The position numbers and the translations under genes were made by a program. From positions 453,242 through 517,241 of the forward strand of contig JAXMGD010000003.1 of NCBI GenBank assembly GCA_046347475.1: a DNA stretch of 64,000 nucleotides, given 5' to 3'. This document shows, piece by piece, positions 8,085 to 63,947 of this stretch. Source of the stretch: Marinagarivorans sp. (GTDB lineage: Bacteria; Pseudomonadota; Gammaproteobacteria; Pseudomonadales; Cellvibrionaceae). Every line of letters starts with the position of its first letter. The first letter of the stretch is position 1. Below the pieces are notes generated by a model. That model had not been told where the DNA came from. It saw only the letters and a list, made by a program, of their open reading frames with translations, and did no database searches.

Positions 8085-9406
8085 GAGAGTGTAAACCAGA
8101 TTGTGTAACCGCCCATTGTTGAATAGGGTTTGGCGACCCGCCAAATAAGAGGCAACACAATGGACACCAACACACTGAAAACCCTCGCGCAAGAGCTGGC
8201 CAAAGGGATAAAAACCCCATCTGACCTCAATGCCTTCAGCGCACAACTGACCAAAATGGTGGTAGAAGCCGCGCTGAATGCTGAATTGACTGAACACCTA
8301 GGCTACCCCGCCCACGCCAAAGAAGGGCGCAACGGGGGCAATAGTCGCAATGGCAGCACCCCGAAGAAGCTCAAGGGCGACCACGGCGAAATAATCATCA
8401 ATACGCCCCGTGACCGCGACGGCAGCTTTGAACCGCTGTTAATTAAAAAAGGTCAAACGCGTTTTACGTCCATGGATGAACAAATTCTCAGTCTCTATGC
8501 TCGGGGTATGAGCACACGCGATATTGTGGCTGCATTTCAGGAAATGTACGGCGCTGAGGTTTCGGCGGGGCTGATATCCAAAGTGACCAACGCAGTATTG
8601 GAGCAGGTTGTTCAATGGCAAAATCGACCGCTGGAGGCGGTTTACCCCATCCTGTATTTAGATTGCATCCACATCAAAATTCGCCACGACAAGCGCGTGA
8701 TCAACAAAGCGATGTATTTAGCCTTGGGCGTTAATCTACAGGGTCAAAAAGAATTATTAGGCCTGTGGGTGTCTGAAAATGAAGACGCCAAATTTTGGCT
8801 TCAGGTGCTTACAGAGCTTAAAAATCGCGGGGTTGAACAGATTTTAATTGCCTGTGTCGACGGCCTGACGGGGTTCCCGGCGGCAATCAATGCTGCTTAT
8901 CCCGATGCACGCATTCAGCTGTGTATTATTCATATGACACGCAATTCTTTAAAATATGTATCCTGGAAAGACTATCGGGCGGTGACGGGCGATTTAAAGA
9001 AAATATATCAATCAACCACTGAGGCGGAGGCGTTAATGGAGCTGGATAATTTTGCTAGAACCTGGGATGAAAAGTATCCGCACATAAGCCAATCCTGGCG
9101 AAATCACTGGCCCAACTTGATTACGCTCTTTAATTTTCCTGCCGATATTCGCAAGGTGATCTATACCACGAATGCGATCGAATCGTTAAATAGCGTTATT
9201 CGCAAGGCGGTAAAAACACGCAAACTCTTTCCGAGTGACGAATCGGCTACCAAGGTGATATTTCTTGCTATCCAGGCAGCTTCTAAGAAATGGACCATGC
9301 CGATACGTAACTGGAAAGAGGCTATGAATCACTTTATCATCGAATTTGAGCCGCAGTTAAGGGCTCATATTTAGGCGGGTGGTTACACAGAATGGTTTAC
9401 AGTCTC
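8085..9406 (+). mobile_element. IS256-family insertion sequence, intact
   Basis: Left inverted repeat gagagtgtaaaccagattgtgtaaccgccc. Right inverted repeat (reverse complement) gagactgtaaaccattctgtgtaaccaccc. Element about 1.32 kb, flanked by 8-bp direct repeats GGTCTGGC (8077-8084 and 9407-9414). Confidence 0.85.
8130..9374 (+). CDS. IS256-family (Mutator-like) DDE transposase
   Basis: 414 aa with motifs YLDCIHIKIR and LCIIHMTRNS typical of the Transposase_mut family. True start may be the internal Met (MDTNTLK). Confidence 0.85.
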   Translation: MATRQIRGNTMDTNTLKTLAQELAKGIKTPSDLNAFSAQLTKMVVEAALNAELTEHLGYPAHAKEGRNGGNSRNGSTPKKLKGDHGEIIINTPRDRDGSFEPLLIKKGQTRFTSMDEQILSLYARGMSTRDIVAAFQEMYGAEVSAGLISKVTNAVLEQVVQWQNRPLEAVYPILYLDCIHIKIRHDKRVINKAMYLALGVNLQGQKELLGLWVSENEDAKFWLQVLTELKNRGVEQILIACVDGLTGFPAAINAAYPDARIQLCIIHMTRNSLKYVSWKDYRAVTGDLKKIYQSTTEAEALMELDNFARTWDEKYPHISQSWRNHWPNLITLFNFPADIRKVIYTTNAIESLNSVIRKAVKTRKLFPSDESATKVIFLAIQAASKKWTMPIRNWKEAMNHFIIEFEPQLRAHI

Positions 9407-27817: not shown

Positions 27818-29419
27818 CTACTGGGTTTTTAGGCTAGAGAGGATCTGTCCAAAACCTAAGCCGAACTTGGCCAGATATTGTTTAAGCCGGTGGCTATCGT
27901 TACTGGAGGCTTTTTGCGTGCGGCTGGCGTTAAATAATGTGCGGCCGGCTTGCGCGAGGCTCACACTGCTTAAACATACTTCCACTACGGCATTTAATTG
28001 CAAGCGGTCAAATAAATCCATGGCGGCGAGGGTTTCATCATCGAGTAAATTTTTTAGATGATCCCTGTGGGAGGGCTGGTTTTGAAAACCACTCCAAGCC
28101 TGTTTTAGGCGGCTAATTTCACCGCTGACTATGTCCTCGCTAATTCGCCCGCCGCTGGCTAAGGTGGCCATGCGCGTAATGCTGGAGTTTAAATCGCGAA
28201 AATTTGCTCGCCACAGAGCTTCAGGCGAGTTGGCAAACTGTAAATACAGGCTGCGGGCTGCGCGATTAAAACTAACTTTGTACCCGGCCGCTTGGGTAAA
28301 TTTAGCCAGTTCATGCTCTAAGTTGGGTTCTAAATCTTCGATGCGCTCTTTTAACGAGGGCAGCCTGTAGGTCCATAAATTAATGCGGGCTAATAAATCT
28401 TCGCGAAATAATCCGTGCCGCACCTGTTCAAATAAATCCCGGTGGGTGCCAGCAATCAGTTGAAAATTGCTGTGTACGGCTTTATCGCTGCCAAGGGGTA
28501 TAAAGGTTTTTTCTTCCACGGCCCGCAATAACATGGCCTGTTCATCAAGGCCCAACTCGGCGATTTCATCGAGAAATAACAAGCCTTTGTCCGCTTCCCG
28601 CAACAGGCCGCTGCGAGCGTTCGCAGCTCCGGTAAAAGCGCCTTTTACATGGCCGAAGAGAGCGCTCATGGCGTTATCACCCCGCAGGGTAGCGCAGTTC
28701 ACCTCAATTAAAGGGCCGCTTAATTGGCCGCGCTGGTGTTTTAATTCATAAATGCGCCGCGCCAATTGGGATTTGCCCGCGCCCGTGGGGCCATTTAATA
28801 AAATCGGCGCGCGGGATTTTATGGACACCTGCTCAATTTGTGCGATAAGCGCATTAAATTCAGCGTTGCGGGTGTGAATACCATTTTTTAAATGGGTGAG
28901 GGCGTCTTGAGTTTCTTTGGCAAAGCGCGAGGCGATTTGATCATAGCGGGAGAGATCCAAATCGATAATCTGGTAGCTGCCTTGGGTGCCTTCTTTACTG
29001 GGCGAAGCCTGAATTAATTTACCCGGCAGGTAATGCGCTTCGGTTAATAAATACAAACAAATTTGTACCACATGGGTACCGGTAGTGATGTTAATAAAAT
29101 ACTGGTTGCGCTCCACATCAAACGCATAGTTGCGGGCTACATCGTGCAGGGCGCCGTACACCTGCTCAAAATCCCATGCATCGGCCACGTCTATAGGCAC
29201 GGCTGTTACCTGGGTGTTGGGCGCAACGCTTGCCATATCCGCAAGGGTTACGCGCAGCAGGGCCTCATCCCCCGGCATATACAGCAACAGATATTCACTA
29301 ATTATCAGCTGCGGGTGCATAAGTAGGGCGAGGCTCGGCCGCCAGCGATCCCAGCGTTTTTTACCCAGCCCACCGTGGTCCAGGCGAGAGCCTAGAATGC
29401 CAATCAATACATTATTCAT
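27818..29419 (-). CDS. rtcR: RtcR, sigma-54-dependent transcriptional activator with N-terminal CARF domain
   Basis: N-terminus MNNVLIGILGSRLDHGGLGKKRWDRWRPSLALL matches the RtcR CARF domain. AAA+ sigma-54 interaction domain (GPTGAGKS, GAFTGA). Divergent from rtcB. Confidence 0.85.
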   Translation of the reverse strand: MNNVLIGILGSRLDHGGLGKKRWDRWRPSLALLMHPQLIISEYLLLYMPGDEALLRVTLADMASVAPNTQVTAVPIDVADAWDFEQVYGALHDVARNYAFDVERNQYFINITTGTHVVQICLYLLTEAHYLPGKLIQASPSKEGTQGSYQIIDLDLSRYDQIASRFAKETQDALTHLKNGIHTRNAEFNALIAQIEQVSIKSRAPILLNGPTGAGKSQLARRIYELKHQRGQLSGPLIEVNCATLRGDNAMSALFGHVKGAFTGAANARSGLLREADKGLLFLDEIAELGLDEQAMLLRAVEEKTFIPLGSDKAVHSNFQLIAGTHRDLFEQVRHGLFREDLLARINLWTYRLPSLKERIEDLEPNLEHELAKFTQAAGYKVSFNRAARSLYLQFANSPEALWRANFRDLNSSITRMATLASGGRISEDIVSGEISRLKQAWSGFQNQPSHRDHLKNLLDDETLAAMDLFDRLQLNAVVEVCLSSVSLAQAGRTLFNASRTQKASSNDSHRLKQYLAKFGLGFGQILSSLKTQ

Positions 29420-29556
29420 AAGGATAAATGCCTATCTATATAGATACATAAAGCTGCCGATCTCAGTGTAGTGGGGCTAGGCAGGCGGCGTCCAGGCAAA
29501 AATAAAACCTTTTAAAAACAGATAGCTATAAATTTTAATCTCGGCGTTTAGGCAGG

Positions 29557-29572
29557 TTGGCAACGGCCTTGC
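29557..29572 (+). promoter_or_regulatory. Sigma-54 (-24/-12) promoter for rtcB
   Basis: TTGGCAACGGCCTTGC is TGGCA-N6-TTGC with exact GG-N10-GC spacing, about 90 nt upstream of the rtcB start codon. Confidence 0.75.
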
Positions 29573-29661
29573 TATTAAGGGTTTATCTGGAGCATCGATC
29601 CAGCCAACACAAGGCGCAATGCCAACAGGCTGAGCGCTTATATAGATTCAAGGTGGAACCC

Positions 29662-30885
29662 ATGACGAACTATGAAGTAATGCATCAACCCGGACAGGTA
29701 CCGGTTAAGGCCTGGACAAAAGGAGTGGCGTTTGACGATAACGCCCGTAAACAAATCAACAACATGGCCAGCATGCCGTTTATTCATAAATGGATTGCCG
29801 TAATGCCCGATGTGCACTTGGGAAAGGGGGCCACTATCGGCAGCGTAATTCCCACTGTGGGGGCAATAATTCCTGCGGCCGTGGGTGTGGATTTAGGCTG
29901 CGGCATGATGGCGGTAAAAACCAGTTTAAACGCGGCGCAATTGCCGGATTCGCTGCAGAATTTGCGCGCTGATATTGAAAAAAATGTACCCCATGGCTCA
30001 AGCCCAACTACCCGTGGCAAGCGTGATACCGGAAGCTGGTTTAACGCCCCGGAAGACGTAATAAATGCCTGGGCGGGATTGGATGCAGGGTTTATTGCGC
30101 TGTGTGAGAAACACCCATTTTTAAAAAATACCAACAATAAAAATCATTTGGGAACTTTGGGATCGGGCAACCATTTTATTGAGGTGTGTGTGGATGAAGA
30201 AAATAGCGTGTGGGTGATGTTGCATAGTGGTTCACGCGGGGTGGGAAACCGTATTGGTACCCATTTTATTGAGCAGGCGAAAAAAGATATGGAGCGTTGG
30301 TTTATTCAATTGCCCGATAGGGATTTAGCCTATATTCCTGAGGGAAGTGAAACATTCAAAGATTATGTAGCGGCCGTGGCCTGGGCGCAGGATTTTGCCC
30401 GCGCCAATCGTGAAGTGATGATGGTGCGGGCTTTAAATGCCTTGCAGCGCAATGTGCCGGTGCCGTTTACCGCGCATTTAGAGGCGGTAAATTGCCACCA
30501 TAATTACATCAGCCGCGAGCACCACTATGGCGAAAATGTCTGGGTAACCCGTAAAGGTGCTGTGCGTGCCGGTGCAGGGGAAATGGGAATTATCCCCGGC
30601 AGCATGGGGGCTAAGTCTTTTATTGTGCGCGGCCTGGGTAATGCGGAGAGTTTTTGCAGCTGTAGCCACGGCGCAGGAAGAATTATGTCGCGCACCGAGG
30701 CAAAAAAACGTGTGTCTATGCAGGAGCATGAATTAGCTACCGCTGGTGTGGAATGCCGTAAGGATGCCAATGTAATCGACGAGACGCCTTCTGCTTATAA
30801 GCCTATAGATGCTGTGATGCAGGCGCAGGCGGATTTGGTGGAAATTGTTCACACACTTAAACAAGTGGTGTGTGTTAAAGGTTAA
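29662..30885 (+). CDS. rtcB: RNA-splicing ligase RtcB (3'-phosphate/5'-hydroxyl RNA ligase)
   Basis: MTNYEVMHQPGQVPVKAWTKGV...MPFIHKWIAVMPDVHLGKGATIGSVIPT closely matches E. coli RtcB. RBS AAGGTGGA lies 7 nt upstream of 29662. The track ORF start at 29557 is an in-frame extension across the promoter. No rtcA follows. Confidence 0.9.
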   Translation: MTNYEVMHQPGQVPVKAWTKGVAFDDNARKQINNMASMPFIHKWIAVMPDVHLGKGATIGSVIPTVGAIIPAAVGVDLGCGMMAVKTSLNAAQLPDSLQNLRADIEKNVPHGSSPTTRGKRDTGSWFNAPEDVINAWAGLDAGFIALCEKHPFLKNTNNKNHLGTLGSGNHFIEVCVDEENSVWVMLHSGSRGVGNRIGTHFIEQAKKDMERWFIQLPDRDLAYIPEGSETFKDYVAAVAWAQDFARANREVMMVRALNALQRNVPVPFTAHLEAVNCHHNYISREHHYGENVWVTRKGAVRAGAGEMGIIPGSMGAKSFIVRGLGNAESFCSCSHGAGRIMSRTEAKKRVSMQEHELATAGVECRKDANVIDETPSAYKPIDAVMQAQADLVEIVHTLKQVVCVKG

Positions 30886-31050
30886 ACATTTAGGCGTGCT
30901 GTAAATAGCATTAATAAATGTTGTGAATTTGGTGGGTTATTTATTTTGGGTATAAATAACACTGTGTAATCTCAGCGATAAGTGCGTAAAAGCACTCTGA
31001 CACGAGGCCGCTGGTTTATTGTGTGTCGAGATGAAACAGCACCAAATAAT

Positions 31051-31112
31051 GCCCCCGTAGCTCAGTCTGGTAGAGCACATTGAGGTCGCAGGTTCGAATC
31101 CTGTCGGGGGCG
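31051..31112 (+). ncRNA. tRNA-like element lacking an anticodon arm (candidate Y RNA-type tRNA mimic)
   Basis: Acceptor GCCCCCG/CGGGGGC, D-arm GCTC-AGTCTGGTA-GAGC, then only CATTG where the 17-nt anticodon arm should be. Variable loop AGGTC, T-arm GCAGG-TTCGAAT-CCTGT. 62 nt. Lies 165 nt downstream of rtcB on the same strand. Confidence 0.5.
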
Positions 31113-31113
31113 C

Positions 31114-31187
31114 AATGCTATAGCTCATCCTGGTAGAGCATCTCACTCATAATGAGACGGTAGCCGGTTCGAATCCGACTAGCAATT
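31114..31187 (+). tRNA. tRNA-Met(CAT)-like gene, possibly degenerate; directly abuts the preceding tRNA-like element
   Basis: Clover-leaf with anticodon stem TCTCA/TGAGA and loop CTCATAA, D-arm GCTC-ATCCTGGTA-GAGC, T-loop TTCGAAT. One mismatch each in the acceptor (A2-A71) and T stems. No encoded CCA. Only 1 nt separates it from the upstream element. Confidence 0.5.
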
Positions 31188-31363
31188 ACCCTGTCACGGT
31201 AAACGTAAAGTAAAAATACACACCGGCGCAGGTGTTAGATAATTAAGGAGTGAATAAACAGGGAAATAAATGGAAATGCTTGTGCAGCAGTGGGCGGCCA
31301 TAACACGTCCGGTTGGATGTGCGCTGCAGGTGCAATTAGGCCTAAGGCCCGCATCACTTCACC

Positions 31364-32581
31364 TTGTTGTGCCCGCTTCGCTGCGGTTGTGTTAATAATT
31401 GGACATTAATGGAGAATACTATGAGATTTAAAAAACGCTATGTGATCAGCGATACCCAATTGGGTTTATTATTTAAAGAACACCAATTTCAGCGCGTGTT
31501 AACCCGCGGTGTCTATGAATTTTGGGATTGGCGCAACACATTGGTGTTGCGCACTATCAGCTTAAATGCCAGCCTCACTGAGGGCGTTCCTGCGGATATT
31601 TTATTTTTAGCTCAGGGCAACCCCGGTGCTTTTGATGCCCATCTGATTAATTGGCAAACCGCCGAGCATGAAGTGGGTTTGGTGTATCAAGACGGCGTGT
31701 TGCGGGACATTAAAGCGCCCGGCCAACAAGGCGCCTATTGGAAAACTCACCAACATGTGGAAATTAAAATCCTCAGCGTTGAAGATGATTTCGCTTTGGG
31801 TGAGTCTTTGGCGCGGGTTTTATCTGGCGCCCGTGAGAGCCTGTTAAGCCGCGCGGCTACCAATGCGGTGGCGGTAAGCTCTGTGGCTGAAGGCTGTGTG
31901 GGTTTTTTAATGGTGAACGGTAATACCGTTAAAACCCTAAGCCCCGGTGTGCATATGTTTTGGAAATTTAACCGTGTTATTGAGGTTAAACAGTACGACT
32001 TGCGTTTGCAGGCAATGGAAGTTAACGGCCAGGAAATTCTTACCAAGGATCGGGTGAGCCTGCGGATTAATTTGTCGGCTACCTGGCAAATTAATAATGC
32101 CGAGCAGGTGCGCGTGAGCTTGGCGGATGCAAAAGAGTATTTATACCGTGAATTGCAGTTGGCGCTACGTGCGGTGGTGAGTACCCAAACCCTGGATGAA
32201 TTGTTGGCAGACAAAAACTCGCTTAATCATCAGGTATTGGACTTGGTGAGTGAAAAAGCCCAGGTGTTTGGTATATCGCTTAATTCGGTAGGGGCGCGGG
32301 ATATTATTTTACCCGGTGAAATGAAAGCTATTTTAACCTCTGTGGTGGAGGCGCAAAAATTGGCCGAGGCGAATTTAATTAAACGCCAAGAAGAGACTCA
32401 AGCCACCCGCTCGTTACACAACACGGCTAAAGTGATGGAGGGTAATCCGATTTTGCTGCGTTTAAAGGAGTTGGAAGTATTGGAGAAAATTACCGGCAAA
32501 ATTAACTCCCTTAATGTTTATGGCGGTTTGGACGGAGTGATGCACGATTTAGTGCGCCTGACGGACAGACGGAGTCAATAA
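31364..32581 (+). CDS. SPFH/band-7 (stomatin/HflC-like) domain protein
   Basis: C-terminal EAQKLAEANLIKRQEETQATR and the preceding region are typical of the SPFH fold. Start may be the internal Met at about 31409 (MENTMRFKK). Confidence 0.7.
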   Translation: MLCPLRCGCVNNWTLMENTMRFKKRYVISDTQLGLLFKEHQFQRVLTRGVYEFWDWRNTLVLRTISLNASLTEGVPADILFLAQGNPGAFDAHLINWQTAEHEVGLVYQDGVLRDIKAPGQQGAYWKTHQHVEIKILSVEDDFALGESLARVLSGARESLLSRAATNAVAVSSVAEGCVGFLMVNGNTVKTLSPGVHMFWKFNRVIEVKQYDLRLQAMEVNGQEILTKDRVSLRINLSATWQINNAEQVRVSLADAKEYLYRELQLALRAVVSTQTLDELLADKNSLNHQVLDLVSEKAQVFGISLNSVGARDIILPGEMKAILTSVVEAQKLAEANLIKRQEETQATRSLHNTAKVMEGNPILLRLKELEVLEKITGKINSLNVYGGLDGVMHDLVRLTDRRSQ

Positions 32582-62789: not shown

Positions 62790-63947
62790 TTAAAACTGTT
62801 CTGCAATTGCCAATGCAAAACCAAAACTGCGCGGCAGATCGCTGCCATCGACGCGGGTACTATCAAGCGCCCAGGACACATCTAAACTCACCCCTTTAAA
62901 TTCAATACCCAACGCCAGTTGTGTTAATTGGCTACCGGCGAGATTTTTTTGCAGGCCGCTACGTACATTGGGCAACCAGTGAGTGCTGGGTGCATAGTGT
63001 GCGGAAATCGTTAGCCATTGCTGTTCAGTGCCGACAAAATCGTCGTAGGCGGTGAGATCTAAAGCGGCGGATGCCCAGGCATTGCTCTGCCAATAATAGG
63101 TGCCATCAAGCCCAAGATAGGCTGTTTTTTTGTGTGTTTCGCGGGCTTTAATGTCGCCGCGCACCTGGGCAAAATCGGCGGCGGCTTCGCAGTTCGCGCG
63201 GGCGATGGAATTTTCCGCGCGGGTTTGGCAGTTTTCACCTACCGGGCCGTAATCAAACGAGGGCTGATTTAAATTGTATAAAGTGGCGCCGAGTCTGTAG
63301 CGATCCGCCGCCCAGATAACACCCACATCAAGCCCCGGTGCGGTGGTGGATTGGCTGTTGTTATCGTATTCATCGCGTATAACATCACCTATGTCTTTGC
63401 CATCAAGTTTTTGCAACAAAAAAACCTGTTTACTTAAATCCAAGGCGTATACAGATAATTTGGCTCCGGCGTAGAGTTGGCCGCCGTAGCGTTTTTGATC
63501 AGCCCCATCAAACCAGCCCCTTGAATAACCCAATGCAAAAGCCGTTTGCGTGGCACCTTTTAAATAGGCGGCGGTGGCGGTGCTAAAGGATTTATTTTGT
63601 TCATCGTAGCTGAGCGGGGCGTCCAGTACGCGGGCTAGCACTTGGGTATTAAAGCTGATATCGGCCATTAAAGTGCCGTCCCACAGAGGCATTTTCCAAT
63701 ACAGGGGCATGAGCGGCAGGTGTAATTCGGCGCTATTTTTAACGTAACCTTCGTCACCCATTTTGACCAAAATAGAATTAAATCGGTCTAAAACAGTTTG
63801 TACTGGGTCTTTATTTAAACTGGGGTCATCGATCAGATCGATTAAATCATCCAGATCATCCACAAAATTATCAACCTGACCAATTTCCGTCAGTGTGCTA
63901 AGGCTGGGTGTAAACCCTAAGCGAAATTGTTCGCCATCATTCACCAT
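62790..63947 (-). CDS. Putative outer-membrane beta-barrel protein; N-terminus may lie upstream of the listed Met
   Basis: C-terminal ...FGFALAIAEQF ends in Phe, the classic OMP signature. Alternating amphipathic strands. The listed Met has no signal peptide, so the true start is probably further upstream or beyond the window. Confidence 0.5.
   Translation of the reverse strand: MVNDGEQFRLGFTPSLSTLTEIGQVDNFVDDLDDLIDLIDDPSLNKDPVQTVLDRFNSILVKMGDEGYVKNSAELHLPLMPLYWKMPLWDGTLMADISFNTQVLARVLDAPLSYDEQNKSFSTATAAYLKGATQTAFALGYSRGWFDGADQKRYGGQLYAGAKLSVYALDLSKQVFLLQKLDGKDIGDVIRDEYDNNSQSTTAPGLDVGVIWAADRYRLGATLYNLNQPSFDYGPVGENCQTRAENSIARANCEAAADFAQVRGDIKARETHKKTAYLGLDGTYYWQSNAWASAALDLTAYDDFVGTEQQWLTISAHYAPSTHWLPNVRSGLQKNLAGSQLTQLALGIEFKGVSLDVSWALDSTRVDGSDLPRSFGFALAIAEQF

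Follow-up and report, generated by a model that had tools for sequence, protein, structure and literature searches.

A conserved array of tRNA-like RNAs and a further structured RNA between rtcB and a Band-7 gene in Marinagarivorans sp.

Background and question

A 64,000-nucleotide (nt) stretch of DNA from Marinagarivorans sp. (contig JAXMGD010000003.1; hereafter the window, whose positions are used throughout) encodes, downstream of the RNA ligase gene rtcB, a tRNA-like element without an anticodon arm and, directly after it, a second tRNA-like element. A preliminary description, made from the letters alone, read the first as a Y-RNA-like mimic and the second as a degenerate tRNA-Met. The locus thus raises the question of what such elements are doing beside an RNA repair gene: whether they are Y RNAs, decaying or working tRNAs, punctuation of an operon, or RNAs with a dedicated protein partner.

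The spacer between rtcB and the next gene on the same strand, which encodes a Band-7/SPFH protein, is a conserved non-coding array composed of a structured RNA (X), tRNA-like unit 1, tRNA-like unit 2 and a hairpin. Comparison with related loci shows every element of the array bearing the marks of maintenance by base-pair covariation. X (30926-31048), the hairpin after unit 2 and the Band-7 gene were not part of the preliminary description. The components are as follows:

30926-31048, + strand: structured RNA X, 123 nt, recognized by covariation and a covariance model; ends 2 nt before unit 1
31051-31112, + strand: tRNA-like unit 1, 62 nt; Rfam tRNA 52.2 bits (threshold 29); starts 165 nt past the rtcB stop
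31114-31187, + strand: tRNA-like unit 2, full cloverleaf, 1 nt after unit 1; tRNA-Met(cat) by ARAGORN, Rfam tRNA 51.7 bits
31186-31202, + strand: hairpin UUACC-CUGUCAC-GGUAA directly after unit 2, 5 bp and a 7-nt loop starting with CU
31203-31420, + strand: remaining conserved non-coding spacer, including a hairpin at 31220-31235, from the alignment of relatives
31421-32581, + strand: Band-7/SPFH ("slipin") gene, 386 amino acids (aa), Pfam Band_7; 234 nt past unit 2

Linkage of the array to the Band-7 gene

Related loci were collected in a scan with the RtcB protein, one genome per species, which gave 80 loci at 71-83% identity. Most of these carry one or two tRNA-like genes after rtcB on the same strand, with odd or unreadable anticodons, and X together with the tRNA-like units is present in 54 of the 80. 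Linkage to Band-7 was counted by tblastn with the Band-7 protein of the window across the assessable loci, which are not phylogenetically independent:

X present, Band-7 present: 49 loci
X present, Band-7 absent: 2 loci (L026 and L050, where the arrays are followed by unrelated sequence)
X absent, Band-7 present: 0 loci
X absent, Band-7 absent: 15 loci

The start of Band-7 lies 358-1045 nt after the end of X, on the same strand, in the 49 loci that have both. Kangiellaceae-type loci carry rtcA between rtcB and X, which indicates that the array stays with Band-7 and not with rtcB. In a Cellvibrio metagenome-assembled genome (MAG), rtcB is followed by only the last 56 Band-7 codons (L007:1863-2073), and this locus has lost the array and most of Band-7 together. 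As judged from these gene neighborhoods, the loci show the array to be coupled to the Band-7 gene across Gamma- and Betaproteobacteria. The statement of the preliminary description that the tRNA mimic occurs without Ro holds for the window, but the mimic is not without a dedicated protein, since the Band-7 gene that had been overlooked is linked to it almost without exception.

A "slipin family protein" encoded in a Marinagarivorans MAG has 100% identity to the Band-7 protein of the window. The AF2 model of the window protein (pLDDT 82.5) comprises a beta-rich N-terminal part of ~165-200 aa, the SPFH domain and long C-terminal helices, and in structure it best matches stomatin, HflK/C, prohibitin, erlin and flotillin, which all assemble into rings or cages; the sequence contains no hydrophobic segment long enough for a membrane anchor. 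The protein is predicted to be soluble and groups, by its modeled structure, with the cage-forming SPFH proteins. Vault-like N-terminal repeats were also considered, on the basis of a Foldseek match to the major vault protein over ~430 columns, and were rejected; the TM score of this match was only 0.34, and the assignment is therefore limited to the SPFH domain and the helix.

Structured RNA X

Besides its closing stem (AUUUGGUG/CACCAAAU), X comprises a clade-specific hairpin (30935-30962) followed by a three-way junction, the arms of which are a hairpin at 30981-30996 (T-arm-like in other clades) and the helix CUGACAC...GUGUGUC. The consensus structure obtained with RNAalifold for 21 sequences from upstream of tRNA-like units had compensatory changes in 10 of 21 pairs. 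A covariance model (R1) was built from this alignment and searched in the window and the rtcB loci; it gave 55 matches, one per locus (the window and 54 loci), all of them downstream of rtcB on the rtcB strand, with a single match in the 64-kb window (48.5 bits, E 2e-8). Over the 55 matches, 95% of the cells are paired, compared with 26-39% when the partners are slid, and 16 of 21 pairs have compensatory changes; both figures come from an alignment fitted to the model, which favors the structure. Folded as a single sequence, X gave a z of -3.9. No match to Rfam 15 was found for X at permissive thresholds in the window and seven relatives, and X is a candidate RNA family absent from Rfam 15.

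In most X-positive loci unit 1 starts 1-7 nt past the 3' strand of the X closing stem; in several others it lies at 19-112 nt, or the first unit was missed by a simple D-arm/T-arm pattern. Two loci from Methylococcales/Thiotrichaceae (L047:5227-5446 and L052:5408-5506) carry an extra element between rtcB and X that ends in ...UCCACCA and scores 31.9 and 22.2 bits, respectively, against the Rfam tmRNA model, below the threshold of 47.

tRNA-like unit 1 and its missing anticodon arm

Unit 1 has an acceptor stem with 7 of 7 positions paired (GCCCCCG/CGGGGGC), a D arm, the variable loop AGGUC, a T arm and the discriminator G. A 5-nt linker takes the place of the 17-nt anticodon arm, and no canonical arm of 5 bp with a 7-nt loop is present; on the Rfam tRNA model, 13 anticodon-arm positions are replaced by 1 nt. 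The fold of unit 1 gave a z of -3.05. The earlier account of this element, as 62 nt located 165 nt past rtcB with a perfect acceptor stem, D and T arms, the variable loop AGGTC and 12 nt of the arm missing, is borne out and agrees with the Rfam score. An ARAGORN run, which had been suggested as a check, called unit 2 as tRNA-Met (CAT) but gave no tRNA call for unit 1.

Five syntenic close relatives (L224-L228) were obtained via their Band-7 proteins (83-92% identical) and aligned over the whole spacer; they share the flanking genes for a PAS kinase, a response regulator and a GGDEF-EAL protein, and mean column identity of the rtcB-to-Band-7 spacer is 87% among 6 close relatives. Unit 1 is retained in all five. 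The linker from the D stem to the variable loop is 5 nt long in the window, L224/L225 and L228 (ACAUU, ACUUC and GCUUU) and 10 nt in L226 and L227, and the anticodon arm of unit 1 in more distant Cellvibrio is 13-17 nt. Loss of the arm was therefore inherited and stepwise, from 13-17 nt in Cellvibrio to 10 and then 5 nt in the window clade. The acceptor stem of unit 1 is kept in the close relatives by double substitutions (GCCCCCG/CGGGGGC versus UCCCCAG/CUGGGGA). Across the wider set of loci this stem is paired at 7 of 7 positions in most and covaries; in several other clades an encoded NCCA follows it, and the anticodon arm elsewhere is a stem with a 3-9 nt loop unlike an anticodon loop. The alignments show the arm-less unit 1 as a lineage-specific end point, with the arm dispensable for the function, and they show the acceptor stem and the D/T-loop elbow as the constrained part.

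Another reading of the two units is a decaying pair of tRNA genes in which unit 1 has already been crippled by a deletion. The missing arm, the two stem mismatches and absent CCA of unit 2 (see below) and a private change in an invariant motif of the window X agree with decay, but two proteobacterial classes have kept the array, its stem cells are 95% paired and compensatory changes are numerous, and the truncated unit 1 persists in at least four distinct relatives with double substitutions that preserve the acceptor stem. The comparison among relatives had been set beforehand as the check on this point; unit 1 occurs in all five close relatives, and both the acceptor stem and the T stem show compensatory changes, which is the behavior of a functional element and not of a pseudogene, and we regard decay as very improbable.

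tRNA-like unit 2 and the downstream hairpin

Unit 2 forms a complete cloverleaf in which the anticodon loop, of 7 nt, reads CUCAUAA (CAT). The acceptor stem contains a single A-A mismatch and is weak at the top, the T stem contains a single C-A mismatch, and no CCA is encoded. Over an alignment of 39 units, 94.7% of the cloverleaf cells are paired, against 27-40% with the partners slid; all 39 of 39 units have the same D stem, GCUC/GAGC, and G53-C61 and G52-C62 are invariant as well. Among relatives, unit 2 often has pairs 1:72 and 2:71 open and keeps a canonical anticodon arm of 5 bp and 7 nt in the frame CU-NNN-AA, which is the generic loop form, being found also in genuine tRNA loops in L037 and L060. 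Within the Cellvibrionaceae, no part of unit 2 varies more than positions 34 and 35 (1.78 and 1.65 bits). The triplets of the units with a canonical loop, over all loci, were:

CAT: 13
GTT: 11
TTT: 5
AAT: 4
ATT: 3
CGT: 2
GTC, AAG, ACG, GTA, ACT, ATG, TCG, TTG, TAT: once each

One conserved body of unit 2 thus bears at least 15 anticodons, including ones with A34, and the conservation of the anticodon that characterizes a decoding tRNA is not seen. Among the window and its close relatives the triplet is CAT in three genomes, GTC in L224/L225 (accompanied by a compensatory stem change) and AAT in L227, and the T-stem C-A mismatch is common to the window, L224 and L228, with U-A in L227. The window and L224 differ at 8 positions of unit 2, 6 of which lie in or beside the anticodon loop. 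The alignments show that in unit 2 the shape of the anticodon stem-loop is constrained and the triplet is not. Units 1 and 2 are thus degenerate in complementary ways. The preliminary description was correct in placing the second element 1 nt after the first with one mismatch in each of two stems; its label of a degenerate tRNA-Met does not stand, as this is a conserved unit whose anticodon differs among relatives.

Working spare tRNAs, used for decoding during tRNA damage, would account for the tRNA calls of unit 2 by ARAGORN and Rfam and for the encoded NCCA after unit 1 in several other clades. The reading is extremely improbable in view of the range of at least 15 anticodons on one body with A34 triplets among them, the often unpaired positions 1:72 and 2:71, the missing CCA of unit 2 and the anticodon loops of unit 1, which are of 3-9 nt or absent.

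Directly 3' of unit 2, 26 of the 55 X-positive sequences have a hairpin whose stem is 5 bp long and whose loop counts 6 or 7 nt. It has the dimensions of an anticodon stem-loop; its stems covary (CUACC/GGUAG, CUGGU/ACCAG, UUACU/AGUAA) and its loops differ. Folded alone, the hairpin was not significant (z -1.4).

The variable triplet and this hairpin give rise to the main rival explanation, in which the array is a bait or sensor for anticodon nucleases: toxins would cut the loops of unit 2 and of the hairpin, and the resulting 5' fragments with 2',3'-cyclic phosphates would activate the regulator RtcR via its CARF domain, or, in a variant, the RNAs would merely soak up the nuclease while RtcB reseals the bait and the real tRNAs. 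The triplet is the fastest-changing part of a conserved RNA and differs (CAT, GTC, AAT) even where Band-7 is 92% identical; the six changes in or beside the anticodon loop between the window and L224, the retained loop frame and a hairpin of anticodon stem-loop size with a variable loop point the same way. The common triplets are CAT, GTT, TTT, GTA, GTC and ACG, which are targets of nucleases of the VapC, colicin E5, PrrC/PARIS and colicin D types. In Salmonella, RtcR is activated upon accumulation of tRNA fragments, and the tRNA domain of YrlA has been suggested as a possible inhibitor of an anticodon nuclease (Hughes et al. 2020); furthermore, the level of the odd tRNA PA4581.1 of P. aeruginosa (see below) is similar whether or not the Rtc proteins are induced (PMC13637947). 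However, free variation of the triplet is equally predicted by neutrality and is not distinguishable from drift with these data, many A-initial triplets (ATT, AAT, ACT, ATG, AAG) match no normal bacterial tRNA, and the counts are not phylogenetically independent. The array also lies downstream of rtcB with no own promoter detected, such that a sensor would need leaky transcription, and unit 1 and X are left unexplained. We consider the bait unlikely. A wider version, decidedly unlikely, combines it with X as a new RNA class (a three-way junction with a T-loop-like hairpin, released by RNase P) in an as yet uncatalogued multi-part RNA device; there, the "tRNA parts" (one mimicking only the acceptor and elbow, one mimicking the whole tRNA with an anticodon that can be freely swapped, and one mimicking a free anticodon stem-loop) would be nuclease bait, the products of which, with 2',3'-cyclic phosphate ends, would be the natural ligand of the CARF domain of RtcR, and the triplet would track the toxins of each lineage. 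A search of the literature on rtcB with decoys or anticodon nucleases, and of RNA motif catalogues, found nothing relevant.

Comparison with Y RNAs and band-7-associated tRNAs

The preliminary description compared unit 1 with the bacterial Y RNA YrlA (RF02553), which was said to contain exactly such an anticodon-less tRNA mimic. YrlA likewise lies in an RtcR/RtcB operon and shares with the units of the window the sequences of the D and T arms, the tRNA elbow, the lack of a usable anticodon and the lack of a free CCA. The architecture differs. YrlA is circularly permuted, with the order T arm, closed acceptor-like hairpin and D arm, and both its ends lie in a long Ro-binding stem equivalent to the anticodon stem (bioRxiv 10.1101/312249), whereas the units of the window are linear with open 7-bp acceptor stems, and unit 1 has no anticodon stem. 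With the YrlA model, for which the threshold is 69, the window reached 25.4 bits, at model positions 27-81 only and across the junction of units 1 and 2, and relatives reached 32-41 bits, the match always joining the T arm of unit 1 to the D arm of unit 2; these sub-threshold matches are explained by the shared D- and T-arm sequences. The strands between the units, CGGGGGC and AAUGCUA, are not complementary and do not form a closed hairpin of the YrlA type. The motif GNCGAAN0-1G, present in the Ro-binding region of YrlA, was not found in 30886-31420, and no rsr (TROVE) gene was found among the open reading frames (ORFs) of at least 330 aa in the 64-kb window. Membership in the YrlA family was rejected because of the low Rfam score, the different topology, the missing motif and the lack of rsr in the window, and the comparison drawn in the preliminary description fails with it.

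The remaining form of this reading would be a true YrlA-type Y RNA working with a Ro60 protein (Rsr) encoded elsewhere in the genome. The D arm UAGCUCA..GGUAGAGC and the T arm GGUUCGAAUCC are those of the YrlA consensus, and sub-threshold matches of 25-41 bits exist; yet these stay below 69 and span two units, no closed hairpin is possible, the motif and a TROVE protein in the 64 kb are missing, and YrlA genes are known from within ~4 kb of rsr on the same strand. The reading is highly improbable.

A paper by Burroughs and Aravind of 2016 is said to name, in its abstract, "SPFH/Band-7 modules" and "a novel tRNA-like molecule" as putative cofactors that provide a scaffold for RNA repair. Wang et al. 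2018 (bioRxiv 10.1101/312249), with reference to Burroughs & Aravind 2016, describe RtcB in some bacteria as encoded beside a Band-7 protein and a predicted non-coding RNA, termed band-7-associated tRNA, or b7a-tRNA, that bears a strong likeness to tRNA and is apparently interchangeable with YrlA, b7a-tRNA being reported beside Rsr and YrlA beside Band-7; the system was put forward as an equivalent of Ro with YrlA, and the class was experimentally unvalidated as of 2018. The locus of the window agrees in having a tRNA-like non-coding gene adjoining RtcB and Band-7/SPFH, with units scoring 52.2 and 51.7 bits against the threshold of 29, in the resemblance of unit 2 to an authentic tRNA, in the absence of Ro and in a linkage kept across many genomes. 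It differs in being an array of X, two tRNA-like units and a hairpin, with an arm-less unit 1, as measured against b7a-tRNA in the terms of the citing paper. The module of the window is very probably a b7a-type RtcB/Band-7 module. The suggestion that the mimic replaces a Y RNA in the absence of Ro matches the treatment of b7a-tRNA in the literature, and its tie to RNA repair rather than translation was sound.

A similar gene is known from P. aeruginosa, where the SPFH gene PA14_60630 (PA4582) lies within the rtc locus, and PA4581.1, annotated as "tRNA-Arg4", lies between rtcR and PA4582-PA4585, lacks CCA, carries G20 and was detected by qRT-PCR (PMC13637947, 2026). PA4581.1 resembles the units of the window in being an odd, expressed tRNA gene without CCA and with non-canonical identity features in an rtcR/Band-7/rtcB/rtcA cluster; it differs in being a single unit and in its place between rtcR and the operon. 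It is likely to be their counterpart, as judged from its description.

A scan of metagenomes for a D arm, 9-17 nt and a T arm gave at least 120 stretches. Of the 74 with at least 1.5 kb downstream, 36 are followed, after 290-900 nt and in the same orientation, by a Band-7 homologue (31-38% identical), and 18 of these stretches also carry RtcB (32-36% identical). These matches were rejected as arm-less linear units: in the alignment, the D arm and the T arm come from two consecutive YrlA-like units of permuted order, and no acceptor stem forms from the flanks. The loci (L084, L091, L100, L112, L157, L183 and ~30 more) contain tandem chains of T arm, hairpin and D arm that score 33-52 bits with the YrlA model and end in a full anticodon stem-loop with a variable triplet; X was not found in this clade. 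They share with the window the presence of tRNA-derived RNAs 5' of Band-7 and in its orientation, in many cases with RtcB near, and differ in having permuted chains instead of linear cloverleaves, in lacking X and in often standing within tRNA arrays. They are probably the cases of YrlA adjacent to Band-7 in the literature, and they confirm, at the level of gene neighborhoods, that tRNA-derived RNAs constantly accompany this Band-7 family. The linear arm-less unit linked to Band-7 is so far, among the loci compared, confined to the window clade.

The units of the distant clade often stand among tRNA genes, as many as 14 or more in one array, and this suggests an origin from phages or mobile elements. 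Linear tRNA-like elements whose acceptor stem is perfectly paired over 7 bp and whose D and T arms are only 9-17 nt apart were also observed, with no RtcB or Band-7 near, in phage contigs and metagenomes (L201-L223, viral contigs; L086, L118 and L200; L087/L090/L120/L154/L177-L179/L185/L190/L191); several are followed by CCA, and one recurrent family by ...UGAAU UUUUUCAGGCU.

Operon, promoter and spacer

The genes and the promoter upstream of the array are:

27818-29419, - strand: rtcR, CARF plus sigma-54 AAA+ activator, divergent from rtcB; Pfam RtcR 8e-70 and Sigma54_activat
29558-29572, + strand: sigma-54 type -24/-12 promoter element TGGCAACGGCCTTGC, from sequence reading and positional conservation
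29662-30885, + strand: rtcB RNA ligase, 407 aa; Pfam RtcB 3e-133

The rtcR product scored 773 bits against the NCBIfam equivalog RNA_repair_RtcR (cut-off 650), and rtcB starts at the first ATG with a Shine-Dalgarno sequence (29662). The TTGGCA-N6-TTGC element occupies the equivalent spot 5' of rtcB in orthologous spacers, 7 in number and reaching as far as Methylococcales; the bare TGGCAACGGCCTTGC-type pattern is not enriched within the window (2 found versus 1.9 expected). The locus thus has the layout of an RtcR-regulated rtc operon, a divergent rtcR with CARF and sigma-54 AAA+ domains and a -24/-12 promoter before rtcB. The module and the promoter had been proposed in the preliminary description and are upheld by the Pfam domains, the equivalog score, the divergent layout and the position of the promoter in orthologous spacers, though its bare pattern occurs at chance frequency. 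The reported absence of rtcA and rsr was likewise confirmed: rtcA was not found by tblastn, and no RTC or TROVE domain was detected among the window ORFs of at least 330 aa.

A segment beside the rtcR start, GATAAATGCCTATCTATATAGATA (29423-29446), is kept in the rtcR-rtcB spacers of relatives (GATA..CCTATC..GATA) and is, from its position and conservation, possibly a candidate RtcR binding site. The neighbors of the rtc locus are two-component and c-di-GMP signaling genes, syntenic in close relatives; a Mutator-family transposase ORF (8130-9374) and a TraF-like ORF (62790-63947) also lie in the window.

No terminator-like or sigma-70-like site was detected on the + strand of the rtcB-to-Band-7 spacer, and a simple sigma-70 scan found no own promoter for the array (weak negative evidence). 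A 41-codon ORF in the spacer (31281-31406), called as a gene in L225, was rejected as a protein; indels break its frame in L227, so it is more likely non-coding. In relatives L001-L033, a GCAGACCUCCGCG-type segment lies just past the hairpin (example region L013:5500-5745), and an apparently complementary GUGGAGGCUCUGC-type segment lies ~30 nt before the Band-7 start, with ~200 nt enclosed; the window clade is without both. A T-arm-only minihelix (e.g., GAGUUGGUUCGAAUCCAAC) follows the hairpin in Methylophilaceae/Nitrosomonadales and Ketobacter-type loci (L022, L029, L032, L039, L040 and L043, ~60-70 nt past unit 2; L031, L036, L038 and L045), with more conserved sequence between minihelix and Band-7.

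The position of the array admits a purely cis-acting reading, in which the tRNA-like folds would be RNase P/Z punctuation and stabilizers that separate the rtcB and Band-7 messages and set Band-7 expression, with no trans-acting RNA. The array is invariably found just 5' of Band-7 and in its orientation, the distant Band-7 clade also has tRNA-like units upstream, the spacer has no internal promoter or terminator, and the conserved acceptor stem and elbow are what RNase P requires. This reading does not explain the canonical anticodon stem-loop of unit 2, a 123-nt junction RNA with a covarying closing stem before the units, or the retention of two tandem units; moreover, the occurrence of b7a-tRNA beside Rsr and of YrlA beside Band-7, as reported in the literature, points to interchangeable RNA partners. 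We hold a role in cis alone to be quite unlikely.

Proposed function

We propose that the array would be co-transcribed with rtcB and Band-7 from the sigma-54 promoter, since there is no terminator between the two genes. RNase P would cut at the 5' ends of the tRNA-like units, the first cut also making the 3' end of X just past its closing stem. The L-shaped RNAs would not serve in decoding and would instead be RNA partners of RtcB and of the SPFH protein, which is soluble and probably forms a ring or cage, in parallel to the role proposed for YrlA with Ro60 in rsr-yrlBA-rtcBA operons. Taken as one whole statement, that the spacer is a b7a-type module whose RNAs partner Band-7 and RtcB, this is rather probable; for the ribonucleoprotein (RNP) mechanism alone we see about even chances.

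Several points weigh against this proposal. Co-transcription, RNase P cleavage and RNP formation are all inferred from the sequence in this organism, and the constant spot just 5' of Band-7 would suit a cis-acting leader equally. The minimum-energy fold of unit 1 swaps the D arm for a longer hairpin (31061-31084) in which CUCAGU pairs with AUUGAG, formed of the 5-nt remnant and the variable loop; the L-shape is uncertain on this account, and the truncated unit may adopt a shape other than that of a tRNA. The X of the window reads GUGUGUC where the other 54 copies read GUGUAUC or GUGUACC, and its model score is the lowest of its family clade (48.5 versus 62-78 bits). A long-range CCUCC...GGAGG pairing before Band-7 in other clades is absent from the window clade. 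Finally, the priority of the tandem units, X and the variable anticodon is judged from the b7a-tRNA description in the citing paper only.

Implications for RNA repair

The array is a member of a predicted, experimentally unvalidated class, with a lineage-specific arm-less unit 1 and with an RNA, X, outside Rfam. What activates RtcR and what RtcB repairs in bacteria remain live questions; Ro/Y-RNA operons have been studied experimentally, and the version with Band-7 and tRNA-like RNAs has only been predicted. If the RNAs were operon punctuation only, the finding would be minor. The locus and its 54 relatives give this version a defined anatomy of three or four discrete RNAs with clear boundaries, and natural deletions of the unit 1 arm, anticodon swaps between near-identical genomes and a soluble SPFH partner make direct experiments feasible. 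The locus is not a new kind of system; it offers an unusually well-defined handle on an unstudied branch of bacterial RNA repair.

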